This document shows, in pieces, positions 12,492 through 39,809 of a stretch of DNA of 64,000 bases. The notes under the pieces are model-generated. The model did no database searches. It saw only the letters and a list, made by a program, of their open reading frames with translations, and was not told the DNA's origin. The translations under genes and the position numbers were made by a program. The stretch is from a virus (taxonomy: Duplodnaviria > Caudoviricetes). Location: IMG/VR virus record IMGVR_UViG_3300014204_013734, positions 160,001 through 224,000 of that record; one strand, given 5' to 3'. How positions within the stretch are numbered: the first letter of the stretch is position 1; each line of letters opens with the position of its first letter.

Positions 12492-13325
12492 ATGGGCAAC
12501 TACGGACCATTTGAAGCAAGGGTTGGTATTTGGTTGCGGGCCACGAATTTTGTGGATTTGATCGTCAGGGATCAGGATGACGTGACGGAATGGCGTTTGT
12601 GGGGCGCTTCCACGTTGAATGACGCTTACGGTGATCCGACCGGAAGCGGTGTGGGTGGGGTATGGCCAACGACAATGCTCACGGCCGCTAAGGGCCGTAT
12701 GGCTACATCACCTTCTATCGTCAAGCGTGGGTACGCCGGGTTAGCTCCAGATAACCGTCAGAACTTTGCCAGTTTCGTGTATGATCCTGATGATTTCCTT
12801 GCTCCGGCAACCCCGCCTCCGTTCTTGTCGGATTCCGAGACCTTTTACGTCAGGGCGCAGATGAAACGTTTAGCTGGGGGTTGGGCGGCGGTTCCTGCCG
12901 GAGCCCCCCTGAACGCCAACAGGCCCATCATGGGACCTATTCTGGTAATCCCCACGGTTCAGGCTATGGGAATGGCCAGCCTGTCTATCAATCTGACCGG
13001 CATCGCTCCGTCAGGTACGGGCGCCGTGATCGGCAGTGCCCCGATTTTTGATGAAACATTCCAAGCCCCGATTCCTATGCACATCATCCTTCCTCGTCCT
13101 ATTTCCAATTTCGTCATCACCAATCTGTCTGATGATGCTGACACCGCCCTTCTGGTGTCGTTCGGAATTGGTCAGCCTTGGCATCCGATTTACGGAGGCA
13201 TGGGCAATCTGTCGCAACTGTCTTCCGATTCCCTTGGTGGTGGAACCAGGGACCTTATCCTGGCGACAACGGCCGCTGCCGGAGGAAGTCCCTTTGCCAT
13301 CCTGGCGGTTTGTCCCGGAGCATGA
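12492..13325 (+). CDS. Hypothetical, probably virion structural protein
   Basis: Gly/Ala/Pro-rich, beta-prone ORF next to the structural paralogs. Confidence 0.6.
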   Translation: MGNYGPFEARVGIWLRATNFVDLIVRDQDDVTEWRLWGASTLNDAYGDPTGSGVGGVWPTTMLTAAKGRMATSPSIVKRGYAGLAPDNRQNFASFVYDPDDFLAPATPPPFLSDSETFYVRAQMKRLAGGWAAVPAGAPLNANRPIMGPILVIPTVQAMGMASLSINLTGIAPSGTGAVIGSAPIFDETFQAPIPMHIILPRPISNFVITNLSDDADTALLVSFGIGQPWHPIYGGMGNLSQLSSDSLGGGTRDLILATTAAAGGSPFAILAVCPGA

Positions 13326-13473
13326 TCCTATAACGTAAATAGCGAAGGTTGTCTGGGGGTTATTGTATTCCCTTTGTAGATGGGCGGTAGTACGTGTCGC
13401 CTGTTGAAAAGAAGAGGGTAATCCCCTAGCCCTGGGGATGCTTGAATCGGACATCTGATTGAAAGGGAACACA

Positions 13474-14634
13474 ATGCCTTACATTTGCTTGGTCAGAGCT
13501 GATTTGCCGGATGGGGTTCTTCAGATACTGGACCTCCAACCCAGCGCATCCTTGCGTGTGCCTGCCTATGATCCACCGGCACAGACCCGTTACGTGAACC
13601 GTGTTCTGAACGACACGGTCCAGATCGTCGGGGGCAAGACCCCGAAGGTGTTCAATGGCCTTGGGGCGTACCTCATGGATTGCCTGGAACCGGGCGGATT
13701 GGGTTTCGGAACGGCTGACATCGACCTGTCAACCGTTGTGGCCGGGGACAAGGTGTTTATTGGGGGGGTTGCTTTCACGGCGACACTGGCCGCCCCGAAT
13801 CCGGCCCTCCAGCAGTTCTGGTCCTTTGCGGGCGGCGGGTCGGACTTGGTTTCGGCTACTTCGCTGATTGCTACTATCAACAATGCAGCATCACAAGCGC
13901 TTTTGTTGGCGGCGGGTTCTACCGTCACGGCATCGGCTGGCGGGTCGGTCGGATCAGGTGACGTTACGGTCGATGCCGATACGGCAGGGCAGACGGGTGC
14001 TTTGACTTTGACGGAAAACACCGGCGGCACGACCATCGTGGTTTCTGCCGACCATCTGACCCGTCCCTTTGAGGTGTTCACCTTCGCACAACTGAATCTG
14101 ATTTCTGCTGCCCTGATTGCCAGGATGGATGCCAGTGCAGTGTTGACGTCTACGGCGGTCAATGCCGCCATCAATGCTATCCCTGGCGTCTCTGATACGT
14201 CGATTTCCAGTCCGGCTTCCGGGGTTACCCTGACTGATTTCCTGTCCATCCTGTCGGGTCGTGGTTATCGGGTCCCGGTCAATTCAACCATCTACACGGG
14301 GACGGCATGGCATATGACTCCGGTAGGTGGCTTCACGATCATCGGCCTCAAGAATGACACCGTGATGACTCAAGGCGAGTTGCATCCCGTGCTTATCGGT
14401 GGCGACCCTCATCCGATGGAAGTCAAAGGAATCACACAGACGTATCACACGTCTTCCTTGGATATTTCCATGCTTGAAGGAACCCTTTACCGGTTGAATG
14501 CCGGCGTGACTCTCTGGCCAAGCAGCGGGGGTATTCCGCACCTTCCCTGGACTTACCAACATGGTTTGCAGTTCAACCCGACTACGGCCCGTGTCGTCAC
14601 GGTTTACGACGACAACGGCACGTTGCTTCTGTAA
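13474..14634 (+). CDS. Putative virion structural protein, paralog 1 of 3
   Basis: N-term LQILDLQPSAS..QTRY; C-term VVTVYDDNGTLLL. Confidence 0.75.
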   Translation: MPYICLVRADLPDGVLQILDLQPSASLRVPAYDPPAQTRYVNRVLNDTVQIVGGKTPKVFNGLGAYLMDCLEPGGLGFGTADIDLSTVVAGDKVFIGGVAFTATLAAPNPALQQFWSFAGGGSDLVSATSLIATINNAASQALLLAAGSTVTASAGGSVGSGDVTVDADTAGQTGALTLTENTGGTTIVVSADHLTRPFEVFTFAQLNLISAALIARMDASAVLTSTAVNAAINAIPGVSDTSISSPASGVTLTDFLSILSGRGYRVPVNSTIYTGTAWHMTPVGGFTIIGLKNDTVMTQGELHPVLIGGDPHPMEVKGITQTYHTSSLDISMLEGTLYRLNAGVTLWPSSGGIPHLPWTYQHGLQFNPTTARVVTVYDDNGTLLL

Positions 14635-14652
14635 CAAGAAAGGAACCCGAAC

Positions 14653-15450
14653 ATGGCAGCTCGCGTTTACATCGTCCTGGCCCGGAATGATGTTTCTGAC
14701 AATCTCCTTCAGGTCCTGGACCTGAAACCCAATTCCTCGCAGCGGGTTCCGGCGCTGGAAGGGGAAGGGCAAACGGGATATCTCACTTGGGATCCTCAGA
14801 ATGATACCGTGGCAACAACCGGTGGGGCTGGGGGCATCCGTACGACCAACGCCATCTACAAGGGTCTTGCCGCTTACGTCATCGACAACGTGGAAAACGT
14901 TCAGGGGGGCAACTTGGCGTCCACGGCCGCACAGGCAAACACCATTGCCGCAGCGATTCTGACCAGGATCACGAACGGTACGTCCCTTACCTTGGCGGCT
15001 ATCAACACCATCATCAACGCGGCGTTCGGCGGGGCTGCCAATTCCGACTTGAACGGTGCCGTTGCAGGGTCTTTCTCGACCGGGACTGTTGAAGAAGTTC
15101 TCCGCATTGCCGGTGGTGAAGTCTACAGTTTGCCGGCTGCGTCCCAGGTCGGTAACGCCGGCAACGCATTCCCTGGCCATGGTGTAGCACACGTTCGTAA
15201 GGGTGCATACCTTGCGTCTACTGCTACCGGGTATCGCAACGTCCGTCAGTTCGTTTGGACTGGGGAACTGAACCTGTCCTGCTTGTCCGGCACTTTGAGC
15301 AAGCTCAAGGCGGCTACGTGGCAGTGGATCAACCCCCTCTTCACTTATGGCGCAGCCGGGACGGCCTTGACCGCATCCGGGACGCACATTCTCGCCACAG
15401 GCCTCGCAGCGGCAGTTGTCGTCTACGAAGCCGACGGCGACGTCCTGTAA
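14653..15450 (+). CDS. Putative virion structural protein, paralog 2 of 3
   Basis: N-term LQVLDLKPNSS..GQTGY; C-term VVVYEADGDVL. Confidence 0.75.
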   Translation: MAARVYIVLARNDVSDNLLQVLDLKPNSSQRVPALEGEGQTGYLTWDPQNDTVATTGGAGGIRTTNAIYKGLAAYVIDNVENVQGGNLASTAAQANTIAAAILTRITNGTSLTLAAINTIINAAFGGAANSDLNGAVAGSFSTGTVEEVLRIAGGEVYSLPAASQVGNAGNAFPGHGVAHVRKGAYLASTATGYRNVRQFVWTGELNLSCLSGTLSKLKAATWQWINPLFTYGAAGTALTASGTHILATGLAAAVVVYEADGDVL

Positions 15451-32617: not shown

Positions 32618-33197
32618 AGCCCGTATCATATGTTTGGTGCCGTCCATCCGTATTCCGGATCTTGATTTGACTTTGGCTAAGGACCAGGAAGCTTACGTGG
32701 ACGAAAAGGCTGCCAAAGGTTCCCTTGATTTGGATGTAGCCCGCCGGGCCGGCGGAGTCCAATTGCATTGGGTAGAACGTAGCCGAATCGTTAAGTCCCC
32801 CGACCCTCCGGTGCCGCCTGTACGTGTGGATCCGCCAAAACGAGGATTCCAGTCGTTTCCAGCAGAACGGTTGGAATTGGATTTGGATGACTTGGCCAGT
32901 CGTGTTGCTGAACGGATGGTTTCCAAGACTAGGGATTCAGAAACGAACAGCAAGATAGACGCCCTCCTTGAACTGGTTGGAAATCTTCGTCAAGAAATTG
33001 CAGGGGCTTCTGTTGCATCGGGTCAGTCCCGTGGTAGGGTAACAGTTGAGGATGACACCCCTGTGTTCATCCCTGGCAAGTTGGTGAACGAAGATTTGGG
33101 GACCGTGGAAGTGAAGACAGACGATTCAGATTCCGGTGATGGTTTGGATAAGGCGGCGGAAGTCTTGAAAGCATTACGGAAACGCAAGAAGAAATGA
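32610..33197 (+). CDS. Hypothetical protein
   Basis: GAGGAGG RBS before GTG 32610; basic C-terminus; coupled to the actin-like gene. Confidence 0.65.
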   Translation: MVEARIICLVPSIRIPDLDLTLAKDQEAYVDEKAAKGSLDLDVARRAGGVQLHWVERSRIVKSPDPPVPPVRVDPPKRGFQSFPAERLELDLDDLASRVAERMVSKTRDSETNSKIDALLELVGNLRQEIAGASVASGQSRGRVTVEDDTPVFIPGKLVNEDLGTVEVKTDDSDSGDGLDKAAEVLKALRKRKKK

Positions 33198-33208
33198 GGA
33201 GAACCGCC

Positions 33209-34237
33209 ATGGCGGACAAGACAGAAAAATCAAATAATTCCAATAGGTTGCCGGGCAGTGGTTTAGATTGTGGCACTATGAATATTGTTTCAGCCAGACG
33301 AGGCCCTTCTGGTATCATTACGAAACGGATGCGGGACGTGTTCCTAGATCTTCCCTTAAGTGCGAAGAAGATGTTGAAGTTATCCAACGCCAGTTTCGTG
33401 GAACGGCCAGACGACGTCCTCATCCTGGGCGATGCGGCCCTGGAAATGGCCAACGTGTTTGGGAAGGATCCTCGCCGTCCATTGGCCCAGGGTATTATTT
33501 CTCCCAGTGAATCGGAAAGTTTGGAAGTTTTGGGGTTGCTCGTCAAGAGTGTTCTTGGTGACCCTATTGTTCCGGGGGAACATTGTTACTTTTCTGTTCC
33601 TGCTATGCCGGTTGACAGGACAGATAAGGATGTCATTTACCATCGTGGGGTGTTTGAACGCATTGTCAAGGAATGTGGGTTCACGCCACATTCCGGCAAC
33701 GAGGCGATGGCCATCATCTATTCGCAGACGGCGGAAGAAGGCTTTTCCGGGATTGCCCTTTCCTTCGGAAGCGGTATGACAAATGTCGCACTTTCGATAA
33801 ATACCGTAGAAGGGTTGACTTTTTCGGTCGCCCGGGGCGGGGATTGGATTGATGCCGGCGCGGCGCATGCCATTGGGCAGACGCCTGCCCGCATCTGTGC
33901 CCTGAAGGAACGCGGGTTTGACCTCATAAGCCCTGTCGGCAGGGAACAGGAAGCCTTGGCTTTCTATTACAAGGAAGCCATCAACTATGCTTTTGACCAG
34001 ATCGAAGCCCAGTTCAAGGCGGTCAAGGACAAGTTCTCCCTTGCGAAGCCTATCCCGATGATCGTGTCGGGCGGGACTTCCCTTGCCGGTGGCTTCATGG
34101 ATTTCTTCACGGGAGTTTTTGAAGCCCGTCGGAAGAAGTTCCCCATTTCCATTTCGGTCATCCGTCAGGCATCTGACCCCTTGAATGCCGTGGCTCATGG
34201 TTTGCTGGTGCAGGCGATGCAAGAGCACGAACAATAG
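33209..34237 (+). CDS. Actin-fold ATPase (MreB/ParM/FtsA-like)
   Basis: GLDCGTMNIV (phosphate 1), NEAMAII, LSFGSGMTNV (phosphate 2), GGDWID, IVSGGTSL (adenosine), DPLNAVAHG. Confidence 0.85.
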   Translation: MADKTEKSNNSNRLPGSGLDCGTMNIVSARRGPSGIITKRMRDVFLDLPLSAKKMLKLSNASFVERPDDVLILGDAALEMANVFGKDPRRPLAQGIISPSESESLEVLGLLVKSVLGDPIVPGEHCYFSVPAMPVDRTDKDVIYHRGVFERIVKECGFTPHSGNEAMAIIYSQTAEEGFSGIALSFGSGMTNVALSINTVEGLTFSVARGGDWIDAGAAHAIGQTPARICALKERGFDLISPVGREQEALAFYYKEAINYAFDQIEAQFKAVKDKFSLAKPIPMIVSGGTSLAGGFMDFFTGVFEARRKKFPISISVIRQASDPLNAVAHGLLVQAMQEHEQ

Positions 34238-34307: not shown

Positions 34308-34712
34308 ATGAAAACGTTTGACGAAATCTACAAAGACACGGATTCATTGGACGACAAGGCCCTCTTGGATTCCTTGCGGGAAGAATCCAGGTGCAAGCTG
34401 GCGTCGGAAAAGTTTCTCCACCAATTCGGTGATCTGTTTGCTGCTGTTGAACACAACAATGTTCGGGTGTCTGATGTCGTCACGTCTGTGACCATTTGGA
34501 CGGACTTGCGGAAAAACTATCCAGAATACGTGGATCCTGAAACGGAACTGTCCGTTCTGAAGGATGGCAGGATGGGAGGTTTGTGGGGCGCCAATGTGTG
34601 GGTTGACAAGACGGTGCCTCCCAACCATATCCGCGTCTATGGAGAAGATGACCCGGCGTTCGCATCCGAATGGCCCAAGTTCGCATCTGCAGCGGAAAAG
34701 TTGTGGACCTGA
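34308..34712 (+). CDS. Stand-alone paralog of one major capsid protein domain
   Basis: Aligns without gaps over about 65 aa to the capsid protein at 2833-3717 (see findings). Confidence 0.7.
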   Translation: MKTFDEIYKDTDSLDDKALLDSLREESRCKLASEKFLHQFGDLFAAVEHNNVRVSDVVTSVTIWTDLRKNYPEYVDPETELSVLKDGRMGGLWGANVWVDKTVPPNHIRVYGEDDPAFASEWPKFASAAEKLWT

Positions 34713-34761
34713 ACTTCTACGGCAAAAGCCATTTGACGACCGAACAAAGGAGTTTTTGAAT

Positions 34762-35655
34762 ATGACCGAAAAGAAGACATTTCAACCATTTCCTGTTCAG
34801 CGGGTCATCATCAAGGCTTTTCGTGGCATTCAATTGGATTCCGTTGCCAAGTTCAGCATCCTGTCGGATTGGAAAAAAGGGAAGAAGGAAACCGTTACTG
34901 AGACGTCCCTCCTTCATTACCTTCACGATGAAGGCATGTGCAACACTTGGAAAATTGAAGTTGGAAGACCCTTCCAACAACTCGTTCTTTGTGCTGGACG
35001 TCGGGCTGGCAAGAGCTTTGTGGGGCACCGTCTCGTGGCGGATGCTTTCAACGAATTACGGTCTACGGATGATTTCCGAGTCGGTTTGGGTCTTGGGGAA
35101 GAAGAAGACCTGAACATGGCGGTTGTCGGCGCATGCAAGGAAATGACAGATTATTCCATGAATGCTATTTGGGATAATTTGAAGGGGGATGATTCGTTAG
35201 CACGGGTTGTCGGACGGATTTCAGATCCTAAACGCCGTTGTCGCATTGTAGCCATGTCGGCTTCCGGCAAGGCGTTGCACGGCAGTAAGAATTATTTCAC
35301 CTTTCTGGATGGAACCATACACGGCCCGAACCCCGATAAGGTTTACAGGTTGGCTCTGATGTCCGGTAAGGGCTTTAAGGGGTCTGCGGAAAGTAAAGTT
35401 GTGTCTGTATTTTCTCCGCCGATCATGCAGAAAGGTGCTGATTTCGCTTACAGGTTTTGGTTGTCGGCCCACCAGGATGCCGGGAATACCCTTTGTTTTC
35501 GCATCCCTTCTTGGGTGATGAACCCGACGATTTCCCGGGATGTGTGGAAGCAGGAAGCAGATCGTATGGACGAAGCCGTATTCCGGGCGGAATACGGGGC
35601 TGAATTTGTTAGTGCTGATGGAAAGCCGTGGAAAAATACAAAGGACCTTTACTAA
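34762..35655 (+). CDS. Truncated terminase large subunit paralog (ATPase domain only, degenerate)
   Basis: PFPVQRVIIK (Q motif), LVLCAGRRAGKS (Walker A), FTFLDG (Walker B without Glu), RIPSWVMNP, FRAEYGAEF, then stop. Confidence 0.75.
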   Translation: MTEKKTFQPFPVQRVIIKAFRGIQLDSVAKFSILSDWKKGKKETVTETSLLHYLHDEGMCNTWKIEVGRPFQQLVLCAGRRAGKSFVGHRLVADAFNELRSTDDFRVGLGLGEEEDLNMAVVGACKEMTDYSMNAIWDNLKGDDSLARVVGRISDPKRRCRIVAMSASGKALHGSKNYFTFLDGTIHGPNPDKVYRLALMSGKGFKGSAESKVVSVFSPPIMQKGADFAYRFWLSAHQDAGNTLCFRIPSWVMNPTISRDVWKQEADRMDEAVFRAEYGAEFVSADGKPWKNTKDLY

Positions 35656-35674: not shown

Positions 35675-37009
35675 ATGCTTCATCAATGGGCTGGATGGGA
35701 AGTAGATCTACTGTCGGCGACACGCCCTTGGCTTCCTGCATCCGATCTTATTAGTTTGTTCAAGGCGTGCGGATCCGTCAGATCCAAAGATTCTTTGAAC
35801 AACAAGGCAACTGCTCTTGGTATTGACATACGGGGGCACAATGCCGAAAAGGCACTGTCAGCGGTCATCAAGTCAAAAATCCCACAAAACCTGAAACAAT
35901 TGGCGGTTACGTTCCTTGGAGGGGTTCCTATCGATACGTCGGAAATCGGGGATCCTTCAAAGGTAGCTGACCGAGTGGAAATTGACAAACTTCGGGGTAG
36001 GGTCCGGTCCCTTGAAAAGGACTTGGAAGAAGGCACCTATTTCGGCAAAATCGTGAAGGATCTGTTTTCCAAACCGGTTTCGGTTCCGGATTGGGTTCTG
36101 GCAGCCCCCAAGAAGAAATCAGGGAAGGTAGCGACCCCCCAACTGCTCATCAGTGATTGGCATTATGGGGAAGTCGTGGACCCGAATGCCATTTGGGGAG
36201 TCAACGAATACAACCCAGAAATAGCTGTCCGGCGCCTGCACCGTGTAGCACAAGCTGCTACCTCCATGTTCAAGGAATACTTGTCGGGATGGCGGTATGA
36301 CGGCATCATAGTCCCCTTGGCAGGGGACATGATTTCCGGCAAGATTCATGCAGAGTTGGAACGTACAAACGCCGAACAGTTGACTGATTCCGTTTTGTCC
36401 TGGTCAGCCGAATTGGCGCGTATGCTTACTGTCCTGGCGGATGCCTTCGGCAAAGTTTACGTTCCAGCGGTAGTTGGAAATCATGGCAGGGAAGATCTTA
36501 AACCTTCCATGAAGCAGGCCGTGGCCCGGAACTACGATTATCTGTTGTACCGACTTGTGAAACGGGAAGTGCATAATGATCCCCGTATTACGGTGGATGT
36601 GTCCCTTTCTACTTCACGTAGGTACACGGTTTACGGGCAGGGATACCACTTGATGCACGGTGACGATTTCAAGGGTGGTAGCGGTATTGCCGGTTCCTGG
36701 TCCCCTTTGAAACTCGGAGAACACCGGACGACGCAACAGTTCATGGATTTGGGACATGATTTTGAGTCTGGGTGTTTGGTTCTTGGGCACTTCCATCGTC
36801 GGATGACCGATATTGGTCTGATTGTCAACGGGTCAGGGATCGGTTACAATGAATTTGCATTCCGGAAACATTACAAATTCGAAAGACCCCAGCAGGCGGC
36901 GTGGATCACAACCCCGGAAAATGGCCAGACTTTGGAATTCCCTGTATTCTGTGATTCCCACGAGGAATACGAAGCCCAGATAGTTGCCGCCAGACTCTTG
37001 AACAAGTGA
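35675..37009 (+). CDS. Calcineurin-like metallophosphoesterase with N-terminal HTH/coiled region
   Basis: SDWHYG, AGDMISG, VGNHG, MHGD, LGHFH. Confidence 0.88.
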   Translation: MLHQWAGWEVDLLSATRPWLPASDLISLFKACGSVRSKDSLNNKATALGIDIRGHNAEKALSAVIKSKIPQNLKQLAVTFLGGVPIDTSEIGDPSKVADRVEIDKLRGRVRSLEKDLEEGTYFGKIVKDLFSKPVSVPDWVLAAPKKKSGKVATPQLLISDWHYGEVVDPNAIWGVNEYNPEIAVRRLHRVAQAATSMFKEYLSGWRYDGIIVPLAGDMISGKIHAELERTNAEQLTDSVLSWSAELARMLTVLADAFGKVYVPAVVGNHGREDLKPSMKQAVARNYDYLLYRLVKREVHNDPRITVDVSLSTSRRYTVYGQGYHLMHGDDFKGGSGIAGSWSPLKLGEHRTTQQFMDLGHDFESGCLVLGHFHRRMTDIGLIVNGSGIGYNEFAFRKHYKFERPQQAAWITTPENGQTLEFPVFCDSHEEYEAQIVAARLLNK

Positions 37010-37038
37010 AGGAGGTAGATTACAAATAATTTCCTTAT

Positions 37039-37255
37039 CGTTCCCCCACTTATGTGGGGTGATCTTGGAACCCCTTTGGTGAGTATTCCCCACATCAGTG
37101 GGGATGAACCGCGGCGTGGATTACGTTCCCTACACACGTGGGGATGGCCCGTGCTCGGCGTTTGTTCGTTCCTAATTCCCCACGTTAGTGGGGGTGACCC
37201 GTGGGACATCACCTTAGATTTTGATGTTGTTCCCCACATTAGTGGGCGTTGACTG
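37039..37255 (+). CRISPR. Degenerate type I-E-like CRISPR mini-array: 5 repeats, 4 short spacers (about 15, 11, 21, 25 nt), no cas genes in window
   Basis: Repeats at about 37039-37067, 37083-37111 (GTATTCCCCACATCAGTGGGGATGAACCG), 37123-37151, 37173-37201, 37227-37255. All keep a TCCC(C/T)AC-N4-GTGGG(G) hairpin; 8-nt 3' handles ATGAACCG, ATGGCCCG, GTGACCCG. Confidence 0.8.
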
Positions 37256-37271
37256 ACCAGAGGGGTTCCAA

Positions 37272-38471
37272 TTGTACTTTCAGTTAACCGAACAATTGAA
37301 ACGACGGTTCATTTTAGAACTCCGTCGTTTCTGGTCTACACATCCCCACTACTCCGACATTGTTGACAAAATTCAAGGGAAGTTTTCCTTCAAGGAACGT
37401 CCTTCCTACGGCATTATTGTCAAGACTTCCGGAGGTAACCGGGTTGACCTTTCCGCCGACAACTATATGGCTATGACGATCAGTTACGTCCACTTGGCGC
37501 GTGCAAGAAACAATCCTGGGGTTGCCATAGAATGGGTTCGTGAAGATTCTGTTGCCATTCAAAATAATGGAGGTATTTTTCCGTCTCTGCCTGGTGTTTA
37601 CTGGATTGAATTGACGGAGGATACTGAATTTTACGTTGACCCTCTCCTGAACATTGTCGGGGAAATCCCAACCCCTATTGACCTTACGACGTTTCAGTTG
37701 CAGCACGCCCCTGTTGCTGGGACTGTCCGTTTGTATGAGATGCCTGCCCGTTATATGTTGGTAGAGGGACAGAACTACACACTTTCCCTTGGACCTGATG
37801 GGAAACCGAATGGTGAAATCATTCTGACGACTCCGTTGACCAGAGACCGCTTTCTGGTAGCGGATTATCGTTTTCCAGCCCCCTCCCGTGGACCTTTCGT
37901 TTTGAACCCCGGTTATGCTGATAACAAAGCAATCCCGGGTGTGATTTTGGCATTTGGTAGGAGGAATCAGAAGGGTGATAAACTTGTTGTCATCGTTGAC
38001 GAAATTCGTCGTCCAGTTGCGTTGGAGTATGGTGGAAAATGGGACGTCACCTTAGATTTTGATGTCATTGCCAGAGATGTTCATGCACAGCAGGAAATTG
38101 CAGATGCAACCGTCGTCTGGATTTGGGCTGTCCTTCGGTCTTGGATGTCCCAGGAAGGTTTGGAAATTACCGACCTGTCCATGGGGGGTGAATCGGAGGA
38201 AACCTACGATGAAGCTGGTGACGACTATTTCTACAACTCTTCGTTTTCCTTGACCGTTCAGACTGATTGGCGCCTCCAGGTTCCTTTGAGTGCCTTTATC
38301 CGGCAAGTTACTCCTGAAACCAGCATTTATGCCCGGGGATTGGCTTCTATCCCGGATGCCCAGTTGGCTTTAACCCAACAGGGGATTAGGGCGGCTACCG
38401 ACTTGGGTTTGGAACTGGTTTCCGACCCCTTCTTTTCCGGGCGTATTGCCACATACGAACAAGTCCGGTGA
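37272..38471 (+). CDS. Putative tail terminator/neck structural protein
   Basis: TTG start after GAGGGG. C-terminal LDFDVIARD..QQEIAD..SFSLTVQTDW fits a tail-terminator fold; lies upstream of the sheath. Confidence 0.5.
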   Translation: MYFQLTEQLKRRFILELRRFWSTHPHYSDIVDKIQGKFSFKERPSYGIIVKTSGGNRVDLSADNYMAMTISYVHLARARNNPGVAIEWVREDSVAIQNNGGIFPSLPGVYWIELTEDTEFYVDPLLNIVGEIPTPIDLTTFQLQHAPVAGTVRLYEMPARYMLVEGQNYTLSLGPDGKPNGEIILTTPLTRDRFLVADYRFPAPSRGPFVLNPGYADNKAIPGVILAFGRRNQKGDKLVVIVDEIRRPVALEYGGKWDVTLDFDVIARDVHAQQEIADATVVWIWAVLRSWMSQEGLEITDLSMGGESEETYDEAGDDYFYNSSFSLTVQTDWRLQVPLSAFIRQVTPETSIYARGLASIPDAQLALTQQGIRAATDLGLELVSDPFFSGRIATYEQVR

Positions 38472-38540: not shown

Positions 38541-38993
38541 TTGCCGATTTTTGATTATCAGTGTTCGTGCGGAATCCGGTTTGAAGCCCCAGGTAAAATG
38601 TCGGAAAACATGAAGCCTTGTCTTTGTCCGGGATGTGGGAAGGATGCCGAACGGATTGTTCCTTCTACGTTGGAAAGTGTATTCCACCAAGACGTGACAG
38701 GTCCGGTTCCCCAGAACACGGGGATTTCCGCAATTGATGCGGACATTGACCGAGCCATCGGCAAATCGTCGGAAACCGGCTGGAAGGCGCATGTCGAACG
38801 TGTGGCTGAGAAAAAGAGGATACTTTCTGAAAATCCCGAAGCTTCAGGTTACGACCTTACGGAAACCCCGGATGGGGATTTTGAAGTTATGCCGAAGGAT
38901 AAACGGGGGTTCCAGGATAGGGCTTTGGAAATCAACACCTTGGCTGTTGGAACATTGAAAAAAGAAGCCCTTCCAAAAGGGGATGGAAAATAA
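38541..38993 (+). CDS. FmdB-family zinc-ribbon protein
   Basis: AAGGAGG RBS; MPIFDYQCSCG..FE..CPGCG. Confidence 0.8.
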   Translation: MPIFDYQCSCGIRFEAPGKMSENMKPCLCPGCGKDAERIVPSTLESVFHQDVTGPVPQNTGISAIDADIDRAIGKSSETGWKAHVERVAEKKRILSENPEASGYDLTETPDGDFEVMPKDKRGFQDRALEINTLAVGTLKKEALPKGDGK

Positions 38994-39809
38994 GTGCGGA
39001 CCTATTTGATTTACAAGGCAACTTCTCCTTCCGGGAAGATTTACGTAGGGCTTACCAGCCAAAAAATGAAGGTGAGAAAACACCAACATTATTCGTCAGC
39101 TAAGCGGTTTCAAAGTTCTGGGGCTTTCCAGAAGGCCCTTCTCAAGTACAGGACTGCTATGACGTGGGACATCTTGGAATCTGGACTTCCTGACTTTGAA
39201 GCTGCCGCTGCCAGGGAACGGTATTACATAGCCTTGTTTGGAGCAAATATCTCAGGTAAAGGCTACAACCACACGGAAGGAGGGGGTCAAGGAAGACCCT
39301 TGAATTCCAAGAATTCCAAATCTAATATTGATCCGGTCTTGCGTTCTGATGGGATTGTTTTTCCTTCTGCACGGGCTGCTGCTTTGGCTATGGGAGCAAA
39401 GTGTGATTGGGCTGTTGGAAAGGCCATCAAGAATAAAGGCACCTGTGGTGGATTTTCTTTTCGGCGGATATCCGTTGAAGAATATGAATCTTTGAAAGAA
39501 ACATGTACCCCTAAGAACGTTCCCATTGTTCATTGGACTTATGCTAGGACTTTTTCTGATGCCGTCAGACGGAAGATATCGGAAACAAAAAAAGGGAAAC
39601 CTTTAAAGCACACCAGCAAACCTGTTAGGCGTTCGGATGGGGTTTTGTTTCCGTCCATAAAAGAAGCAGCGATTTCGGTTGGTACGACATCAGACGCTTT
39701 ACGCTATGCTGCACAAAGAAACCAACTTTGTCATGGGTTTTTATTTGAGATTTTTCCGAAAGGAATTTCGGTGGTCGCCCTATTGAAACCCCTTGGTGGA
39801 CAGGATTGA
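38994..39809 (+). CDS. GIY-YIG homing endonuclease with NUMOD-type DNA-binding repeats
   Basis: LIYKATSPSGKIYVGLT, ERYYIALF, GYNHTEGG; two RSDG..FPS..AA repeats; RRKISETKKG. Confidence 0.88.
   Translation: MRTYLIYKATSPSGKIYVGLTSQKMKVRKHQHYSSAKRFQSSGAFQKALLKYRTAMTWDILESGLPDFEAAAARERYYIALFGANISGKGYNHTEGGGQGRPLNSKNSKSNIDPVLRSDGIVFPSARAAALAMGAKCDWAVGKAIKNKGTCGGFSFRRISVEEYESLKETCTPKNVPIVHWTYARTFSDAVRRKISETKKGKPLKHTSKPVRRSDGVLFPSIKEAAISVGTTSDALRYAAQRNQLCHGFLFEIFPKGISVVALLKPLGGQD

Follow-up and report, generated by a model that had tools for sequence, protein, structure and literature searches.

The archaeal portogloboviruses SPV1 and SPV2 carry mini-arrays that are directed against close relatives, with targets near the array and a point-mutated version of the target in the carrier itself; the nearness of the targets to these virus-borne arrays was noted and left unexplained (Medvedeva et al, 2019; PMC6858448). 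The locus that we describe here, a row of five type I-E-like repeats at 37039-37255 of the window (the whole 64,000-nt stretch of phage DNA that was analyzed), fits SPV1 and SPV2 more closely than any other known system. It too is a small intergenic array with targets near the array and a point-mutated own copy in the carrier; the spacers differ from sites within 850 bp by one or two mismatches each, and the role that we propose, exclusion of close relatives, is the same. In contrast to SPV, which uses the Cas proteins of its host, our array sits in a bacterial phage of 444 kb with its own type I-E interference module, its spacers are 11-25 nt rather than full length, its repeats have diverged, and its targets are predicted.

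Shortened spacers are a feature of Cracr arrays. In type I-E, Cracr spacers are 21-24 nt long, and the RNAs are processed by Cas6 and loaded into smaller effector complexes; the spacers copy host CreR/CreA and, with their PAM-proximal match intact, hit host cas or creT promoters (Liu et al, bioRxiv 10.1101/2024.10.29.618823). Our array likewise has degenerate repeats, shortened spacers and several units in a row, and it is phage-borne. Unlike Cracr, it shows no match to a cas or creT promoter that runs unbroken for at least 9 bp on the PAM-proximal side. Its targets are instead phosphoesterase and neck genes and a ribosome-binding site; it matches the phage's own neighbors, mostly within open reading frames, at sites where the flanks and seeds are weakened. 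A recurring unit with the same type of repeat occurs on other IMG/VR contigs (L024, L025, L031, L033, L035, L032 and L028/L034), consisting of a promoter-like box, a type I-E repeat, a spacer of about 21 nt, a degenerate repeat that lacks the handle, and a strong terminator. These recurring units are probably Cracr-type RNAs.

As with the Racr RNAs (Camara-Wilpert et al, 2023; PMC10651486), we find hairpins mimicking a CRISPR repeat in a phage genome, far from cas genes, and the same phage has three solitary copies in its tRNA island. Where Racr is a lone mimic, however, this locus has five units, informative spacers and a phage-encoded Cas6e and Cascade. Huge phages, reportedly described by Al-Shayeb and colleagues in 2020, are said to carry CRISPR-Cas systems without adaptation genes that are presumed to be used against competitors. 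Our phage resembles them in combining an interference module and arrays with no Cas1 or Cas2; what is new compared to the known huge-phage systems is a satellite array, 190 kb from the cas operon, holding only truncated near-self spacers from its own neighborhood. There is also a likeness, in logic only, to the freestanding homing endonucleases of T-even phages and to marker exclusion, where a neighboring gene of a rival is cut, the carrier allele is protected by silent differences, and repair copies the element. Here an RNA guide and Cascade-Cas3 would replace the protein endonuclease.

The five repeats alternate with four spacers, all on the + strand; bit scores refer to a model of the phage's main array described below. 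R1 (37039-37067) has an intact hairpin and matches the model in the hairpin only (19 bits), its 3' handle being degenerate (TGATCTTG) with one base lost after the stem. It is followed by S1 (15 nt, 37068-37082), which is complementary to 37254-37268. R2 (37083-37111; handle ATGAACCG) is the best copy, matching over its full length with 33.7 bits, and R3 (37123-37151; handle ATGGCCCG) and R4 (37173-37201; handle GTGACCCG) also match over their full length, with 26.7 and 25.7 bits. Between these three repeats lie S2 (11 nt, 37112-37122), a near-copy of 36897-36907 on the + strand, and S3 (21 nt, 37152-37172), a near-copy of 36358-36378 on the - strand. S4 (25 nt, 37202-37226), a near-copy of 38040-38064 on the + strand, precedes R5 (37227-37255), which has a broken basal pair, a degenerate handle (GTTGACTG) and a score, 7 bits, that is not significant.

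This layout, with five 29-nt units and spacers of 15, 11, 21 and 25 nt, confirms the preliminary description of the locus, which had also noted that the hairpin is kept as loop and handle drift and that a pair is broken in the last copy. Indeed, each unit folds on its own into a stem in the same register with a 4-nt loop (seven pairs in R2-R4); one stem pair in R3 is G-U, and R5 folds without the basal pair. The compensatory stem change reported for the best repeat is present as well, pair 10:17 being A-U in R2 versus G-C in the E. coli K-12 repeat, and the identity of 23/29 to E. coli given earlier is corrected to 22/29 by comparison with the commonest K-12 repeat in NC_000913. The core pattern, with one mismatch allowed at most, has eight forward occurrences in the 381-kb database record that includes the window; the reversed-pattern control has none, which puts the locus well above what chance would give. 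Identity among the mini-array repeats outside the stem is 42%, and the locus has neither the near-identical repeats nor the regular spacers of about 32 nt nor the adaptation module of a canonical type I-E array; we agree with the earlier judgment that ordinary CRISPR finders would miss it. No Rfam family matches the mini-array, even with E values up to 1. A six-base periodicity in the spacer lengths was weighed and found unconvincing.

The window corresponds to bases 160001-224000 of that record, a 381,280-bp IMG/VR entry labelled 'provirus'. A 444,386-bp ENA contig carries the same DNA, 100% identical at the array locus; the coordinates of the two entries fit a circular permutation in which the IMG/VR record is short of 63 kb. 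The missing 63 kb encodes cas3 (864 aa), cse1, cse2, cas7e, cas5e and cas6e, in that order in one operon, and the six Cas proteins all pass their NCBIfam cut-offs. A main array of about 33 repeats (13120-15100 of segment L019 of the ENA contig, outside the window) lies directly after cas6e (L019 12427-13056). The genes flanking the cas locus are phage genes, a DNA ligase gene upstream and a PARP-domain gene downstream. Thus the claim that there are no cas genes holds for the window and for the 381-kb record, where searches with the Cas6e, Cas7e and Cas1 families found none; it does not hold for the phage genome, and the mini-array is not 'Cas-less', given that the same phage encodes the complete set from cas3 to cas6e together with the main array. 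It was the trimming of the database record that led to this misreading. The 63 kb trimmed as 'host' is phage DNA, and the 'provirus' label in IMG/VR seems to be an artefact of the cas genes. As for adaptation genes, the Cas1 family search that was negative in the 381-kb record was positive as a control in seven known genomes, and both Cas1 and Cas2 are absent from the precomputed Pfam calls for ENA contig 341803-411440; about 5 kb of the genome lies outside this coverage. Besides the cas locus, ENA contig 341803-371000 (L046-L048) contains about 30 genes in tandem, each encoding 180-220 aa.

The main array is irregular, with spacer lengths between 9 and 64 nt (mostly 32-34) and with differences among the repeats in the loop and at positions 22 and 25. 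Its spacers have no match in published phages. When three degenerate main-array spacer patterns were searched in IMG/VR, one gave a match; the sole outside match seen, for spacer m12, is to an unrelated IMG/VR contig (26/33, with an AAG flank). A 10-mer, AAATAATTTC, located just 5' of R1 (noted at window 37020-37038 and L016 3457-3466), also ends main-array spacer m3 and occurs with one change in the 3' end of cas6e; this sharing may be chance. Elsewhere in the record (G000 350900-351560, about 127 kb past the end of the window) there is another mini-array with a different hairpin repeat ending in ACACGTTGAA; its 27-nt spacer has a 24/27 match to the next gene, 440 nt away. In a 437-kb IMG/VR phage with terminal repeats (G001, segment L037), several small type I-E arrays of three to seven repeats lie dispersed in intergenic regions. 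Two stem forms, CCCCAC/GTGGGG and CCCCGC/GCGGGG, alternate in these repeats and differ by compensatory changes, and in one terminal unit a 20-nt spacer immediately precedes the start of a gene. In the 12.8 kb of G001 that was examined, no spacers match neighboring genes.

To relate the mini-array to the main array, a covariance model was trained on 30 main-array repeats only and then run on the mini-array. It recovered R2-R4 over their full length (26-34 bits, E values from 7e-10 to 7e-7), and these three repeats share the features of the family: units of 29 nt in which positions 5-22 form a 7-bp stem with a 4-nt loop and RTGRTCCG serves as the 3' handle. R2 is identical to the penultimate main-array repeat at 25/29 positions, and the mini-array repeats are closer to those of the phage's main array than to those of E. 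coli. Compared with the main-array consensus, GGTTTCCCCAC-NNNN-GTGGGGRTGRTCCG, the stems of the five mini-array units are changed at only 2/60 positions, versus 12/35 for the non-stem positions that are conserved in the main array (Fisher 8e-5); outside the stem, the repeat positions have diverged by 34-56%. Stems that are nearly untouched next to so diverged a remainder argue for ongoing selection on the Cas6e hairpin, and from this pattern the hairpin appears to be held by selection while the remaining repeat has drifted. Comparison with bacterial repeats showed that near-identical repeats, regular and uniform, make up bacterial arrays in one metagenome-assembled genome of Acidobacteriota and one of Chthoniobacterales. 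A compatible host system is therefore possible. Three solitary type I-E repeats are found in the phage's tRNA island of about 17 tRNA genes (G000 48959, 53397 and 56250), scoring 27-40 bits against the main-array model, and one of them sits between two tRNA genes.

When the whole 381-kb record was scanned, each of the four spacers proved to be a near-copy of a site no more than 850 bp away. The only near-match of S4 in the record (24/25) lies within the downstream gene, at 38040 on the + strand; its mismatch, at spacer position 7, is Val versus Ile. For S3, too, there is a single near-match (19/21), located within the upstream gene at 36358 on the - strand, with mismatches at spacer positions 3 and 15 that are both at silent third-codon positions. 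The match scores of S3 and S4 were reached in none of 186 control 2-kb windows. For S1 and S2 the best local matches lie within the same 850 bp: S2 matches at 36897 with 10/11 (12/13 including the next two bases), and S1 matches the - strand at 37254 with 13/15 (18/20 with its flanks). The S1 match is part of a long-range inverted repeat, 18/20 complementary, in which one arm is at 37065-37084 and the 3' arm, at 37252-37271 on the + strand, takes in the GAGGGG ribosome-binding site and stops at the TTG start codon; this long helix is present in the minimum-energy fold, with a z-score of -5.8.

Spacers at the edges of the main array behave likewise. Three of them, m3 (31/33), m5 and m18, are copies from the 3' part of the adjacent upstream gene, cas6e, and m30, m31 and m32, at the end of the main array, are copies from the adjacent downstream PARP gene, such that the copying of neighbors is common to three separate arrays of one genome. 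Simple local duplication was rejected as the origin of the spacers, since the source sites are non-collinear, lie on both strands and have AAG-like flanks. The spacers are more than padding between hairpins, being unique near-copies of sites within 850 bp, three of them with an AAG-like flank.

We took as the flank the three bases 5' of each copy in spacer orientation. The flanks of three self copies are AAG-like: AGG for S2 (36894-36907 with the flank, + strand, inside the upstream gene), AAC for S3 (36358-36381, - strand, inside the upstream gene) and AAA for S4 (38037-38064, + strand, in the conserved YGGKWDVTLDFD segment of the neck gene). That of S1, TTG, is not PAM-like. The self copies of the main-array spacers are flanked by AAG (m3), AAA (m5), AAG (m18), GGT (m30), TAT (m31) and AAA (m32). 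Flanks of the form A-[A/G]-N are thus found at 7/10 self copies versus 13% expected, a preference that comes from few sites and from a pattern defined partly post hoc, after the data had been seen.

Five flanks are one base off AAG, and in 5/5 the change falls at a third codon position, four of the changes being silent (p 0.004). In the flank of S2 this is a silent third-position change (CAG versus CAA), and in that of S4 a silent change of a Lys codon. The mismatches between spacers and genes show the same bias; in coding sequence, 21/33 are at third codon positions (p 3.5e-4) and 19/33 are synonymous. When mismatches and flank deviations are counted together, 6/7 are at third codon positions in the mini-array alone (p 0.007) and 26/38 when the main-array edge spacers are included. 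This third-codon bias indicates that the differences arose under coding constraint. Either the resident genes have escaped, or the spacers would derive from sister alleles.

The length of the spacers limits what each could do. In E. coli type I-E, spacers of more than 20 nt still interfere, spacers of 14 nt still prime, and shortened crRNAs form Cascade with fewer Cas7 subunits (PMC5159557). By these limits only S3 (21 nt) and S4 (25 nt) could cut, and the earlier premise that short guides bind without triggering Cas3 does not extend to spacers above 20 nt; those of 14 nt would still support priming. S3 and S4 are also the two spacers whose resident copies combine a weakened flank with a seed mismatch (positions 3 and 7, respectively), and S2, with a good flank and seed, is only 11 nt. 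It is suggestive, with four spacers only, that the long spacers are the ones whose self copies seem to be doubly disarmed.

The array lies between two genes of the + strand. The upstream gene (35675-37009, 444 aa), which contains the S2 and S3 copies, belongs to a metallophosphoesterase or 'exonuclease' family (phrog_284, 2e-38), some homologues of which carry PF12850 or PF00149; its closest homologue (63%) is in another phage, in a different context and with no array. The downstream gene (37272-38471, 399 aa), containing the S4 copy, encodes a neck or tail-terminator-like protein that is conserved in huge phages and has 826 homologues. Its AlphaFold model (pLDDT 78) has as its best Foldseek matches, all weak, the neck of phage 812, the E217 gateway protein and lambda gpU. 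The first description of the surroundings as a structural operon is thus half right, in that the downstream gene encodes a neck- or tail-terminator-like virion protein and the upstream gene a protein of the metallophosphoesterase family. We found no promoter or terminator framing the array beyond chance, and we infer that it is co-transcribed with the flanking genes. Other genes nearby include a Volactin-family gene (33194-34237; Pfam, 4.5e-70), a 363-aa open reading frame (34564-35655) with a weak likeness to the terminase large subunit, and, just 3' of the neck gene, a Zn-ribbon gene and a GIY-YIG homing endonuclease gene (38541-39809).

The slot between a 297-aa gene and the neck gene is variable among relatives. 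A syntenic array, which the preliminary description had proposed to look for in related phages, is absent from the corresponding locus in seven of them, four at 43-59% and three at 64-77% protein identity; in the nearest relatives (75-77%) the slot is free of type I-E arrays, and their S4 site matches at 19-21/25 positions. The closest relative, whose neck protein is 75% identical, has at the same intergenic spot before the neck gene a solitary repeat that belongs to a different CRISPR type and ends in GCGTGGATTGAAAC (L021 1707-1739; Rfam CRISPR-DR9, E 1e-3). S2 shares GGCGTGGATT with this solitary repeat, and from this likeness it could instead be a remnant of a CRISPR repeat of the other type. 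Exact S4 is absent from IMG/VR, and exact S3 and exact S4 are absent from JGI metagenome contigs. Three assemblies carry the locus in identical form, the third over 1858 bp; samples containing the phage are ERZ27247350, SRR6484787, SRR18595299 and JGI 3300035208. Apparent second cluster members were considered as sister alleles and rejected; they differ only in the translation of the start codon.

Taken together, the locus is very probably a satellite array that belongs to the type I-E system encoded by the phage itself, with guides that copy its neighbors. On its function we are more tentative; the reading that we favor is that it may exclude co-infecting sister phages that carry the matching alleles with an AAG flank. 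The array would probably be transcribed with the surrounding + strand genes, and the phage Cas6e would cut at the 3' base of each hairpin to yield four crRNA-like RNAs (about 44, 40, 50 and 54 nt), each with an 8-nt handle, a short spacer and the next hairpin. The S2-S4 guides, which have near-consensus handles, would then load Cascade with fewer Cas7 subunits and hit alleles of both flanking genes in close relatives; because the guides copy alleles of the flanking genes, they would be aimed at relatives that have the matching allele and an AAG flank. The resident copies would be disarmed mostly by silent flank and seed changes and partly by spacer truncation. Transcription, cutting by Cas6e, loading of Cascade and the existence of the sister alleles are all steps that we infer. 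Part of the array needs a different explanation, as S1 and S2 are too short to cut and the S1 target has no AAG-like flank. Two further observations speak against exclusion: R5, the 3' hairpin of the S4 unit, is weak, and m3 (31/33, with an AAG flank and an intact seed) matches the phage's own cas6e and is apparently tolerated, a sign that this phage may leave some near-self targets uncut. A bolder version, which we regard as doubtful, is that the mini-array and the edges of the main array serve for RNA-guided homing or marker exclusion and would amount to a natural CRISPR 'gene drive' in phages; cutting a rival's alleles of the flanking genes would force repair from the carrier genome, and this repair would copy the array and its protected silent-variant flanks into the rival.

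The array might instead be regulatory, a phage version of CreR/CreA in which Cascade with short crRNA-like (crlRNA) guides binds the resident neighbors without Cas3 cutting and tunes their transcription. Degenerate repeats, short spacers, partial matches, adjacent targets and a cognate effector in the same genome are hallmarks of such RNAs; S1 and S3 would pair with the coding strand, S1 lies on the ribosome-binding site of the neck gene, and the near-self m3 is tolerated. However, three of the four targets are inside reading frames, away from promoters, the binding that regulation needs would be weakened by the seed mismatches and weak flanks of the S3 and S4 self copies, no conserved circuit is visible given that the array is absent from the nearest relatives (75-77%), and the third-codon bias is not predicted; we consider regulation unlikely. 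We are equally skeptical that the array is a relic of autoimmunity with no current guide function, left when Cas1-Cas2 of a host accidentally captured DNA beside a solitary repeat and since neutralized by truncation and escape. Such an origin is in keeping with the lack of Cas1 and Cas2 in the phage, with a main array that is irregular too (spacers of 9-64 nt, heterogeneous repeats), with the degenerate R1 and R5, and with at least one disarming feature in every unit. It does not explain why, in a genome of 444 kb, every capture should have been made within 850 bp, and it conflicts with the near-untouched stems (2/60) beside other repeat positions diverged by 34-56% and with handles that, for S2-S4, are still near consensus.

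Two other readings look to the RNA itself. In one, hairpin cleavage by Cas6e severs the helix between S1 and the ribosome-binding site, which spans R2-R5, and frees translation of the neck gene; such a switch would couple neck-protein synthesis to Cas6e activity and is compatible with the other readings. The 18/20 helix overruns the borders of the spacer, ends exactly at the start codon and is present in the minimum-energy fold (z-score -5.8), and the fold places the ribosome-binding site in a loop after a cut at R5. S1 also looks less guide-like than the other spacers, having a poor handle and no PAM-like flank. Yet the helix is known from one genome only, relatives express the same gene without such a leader, and local hairpins forming co-transcriptionally may block the long helix, making the switch quite improbable in our estimate. 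Still less probable is the function first suggested, that of a Racr- or Cracr-type RNA anti-CRISPR that would titrate or reprogram Cas6e and Cascade of a type I-E system in the host. Repeat-mimic RNAs and short-spacer type I-E arrays are known from phages (PMC10651486; bioRxiv 10.1101/2024.10.29.618823), IMG/VR holds many units of this repeat type in which a promoter, a repeat, a 21-nt spacer, a degenerate repeat and a terminator follow one another, and nearly the same repeat occurs in bacterial arrays (Acidobacteriota, Chthoniobacterales). Nevertheless, although such near-identical bacterial repeats exist, nothing points to the host Cascade: the phage encodes the cognate Cas proteins, and decoys would therefore strike its own system too; the spacers copy phage genes and no host cas or creT promoter; the unit has no framing promoter or terminator; and a Racr-type decoy needs neither unique near-copies within 850 bp nor AAG-like flanks.

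The reading that we prefer, a satellite array directed at sister alleles, carries a testable signature of self versus sister in the silent flank and seed changes of the carrier's own genes. With a huge phage that has its own Cas3 and Cascade, it becomes possible to test exclusion, self-spread or regulation of neighbors in E. coli. Homing, if true, would explain why virus-borne arrays so frequently target their own neighborhood.
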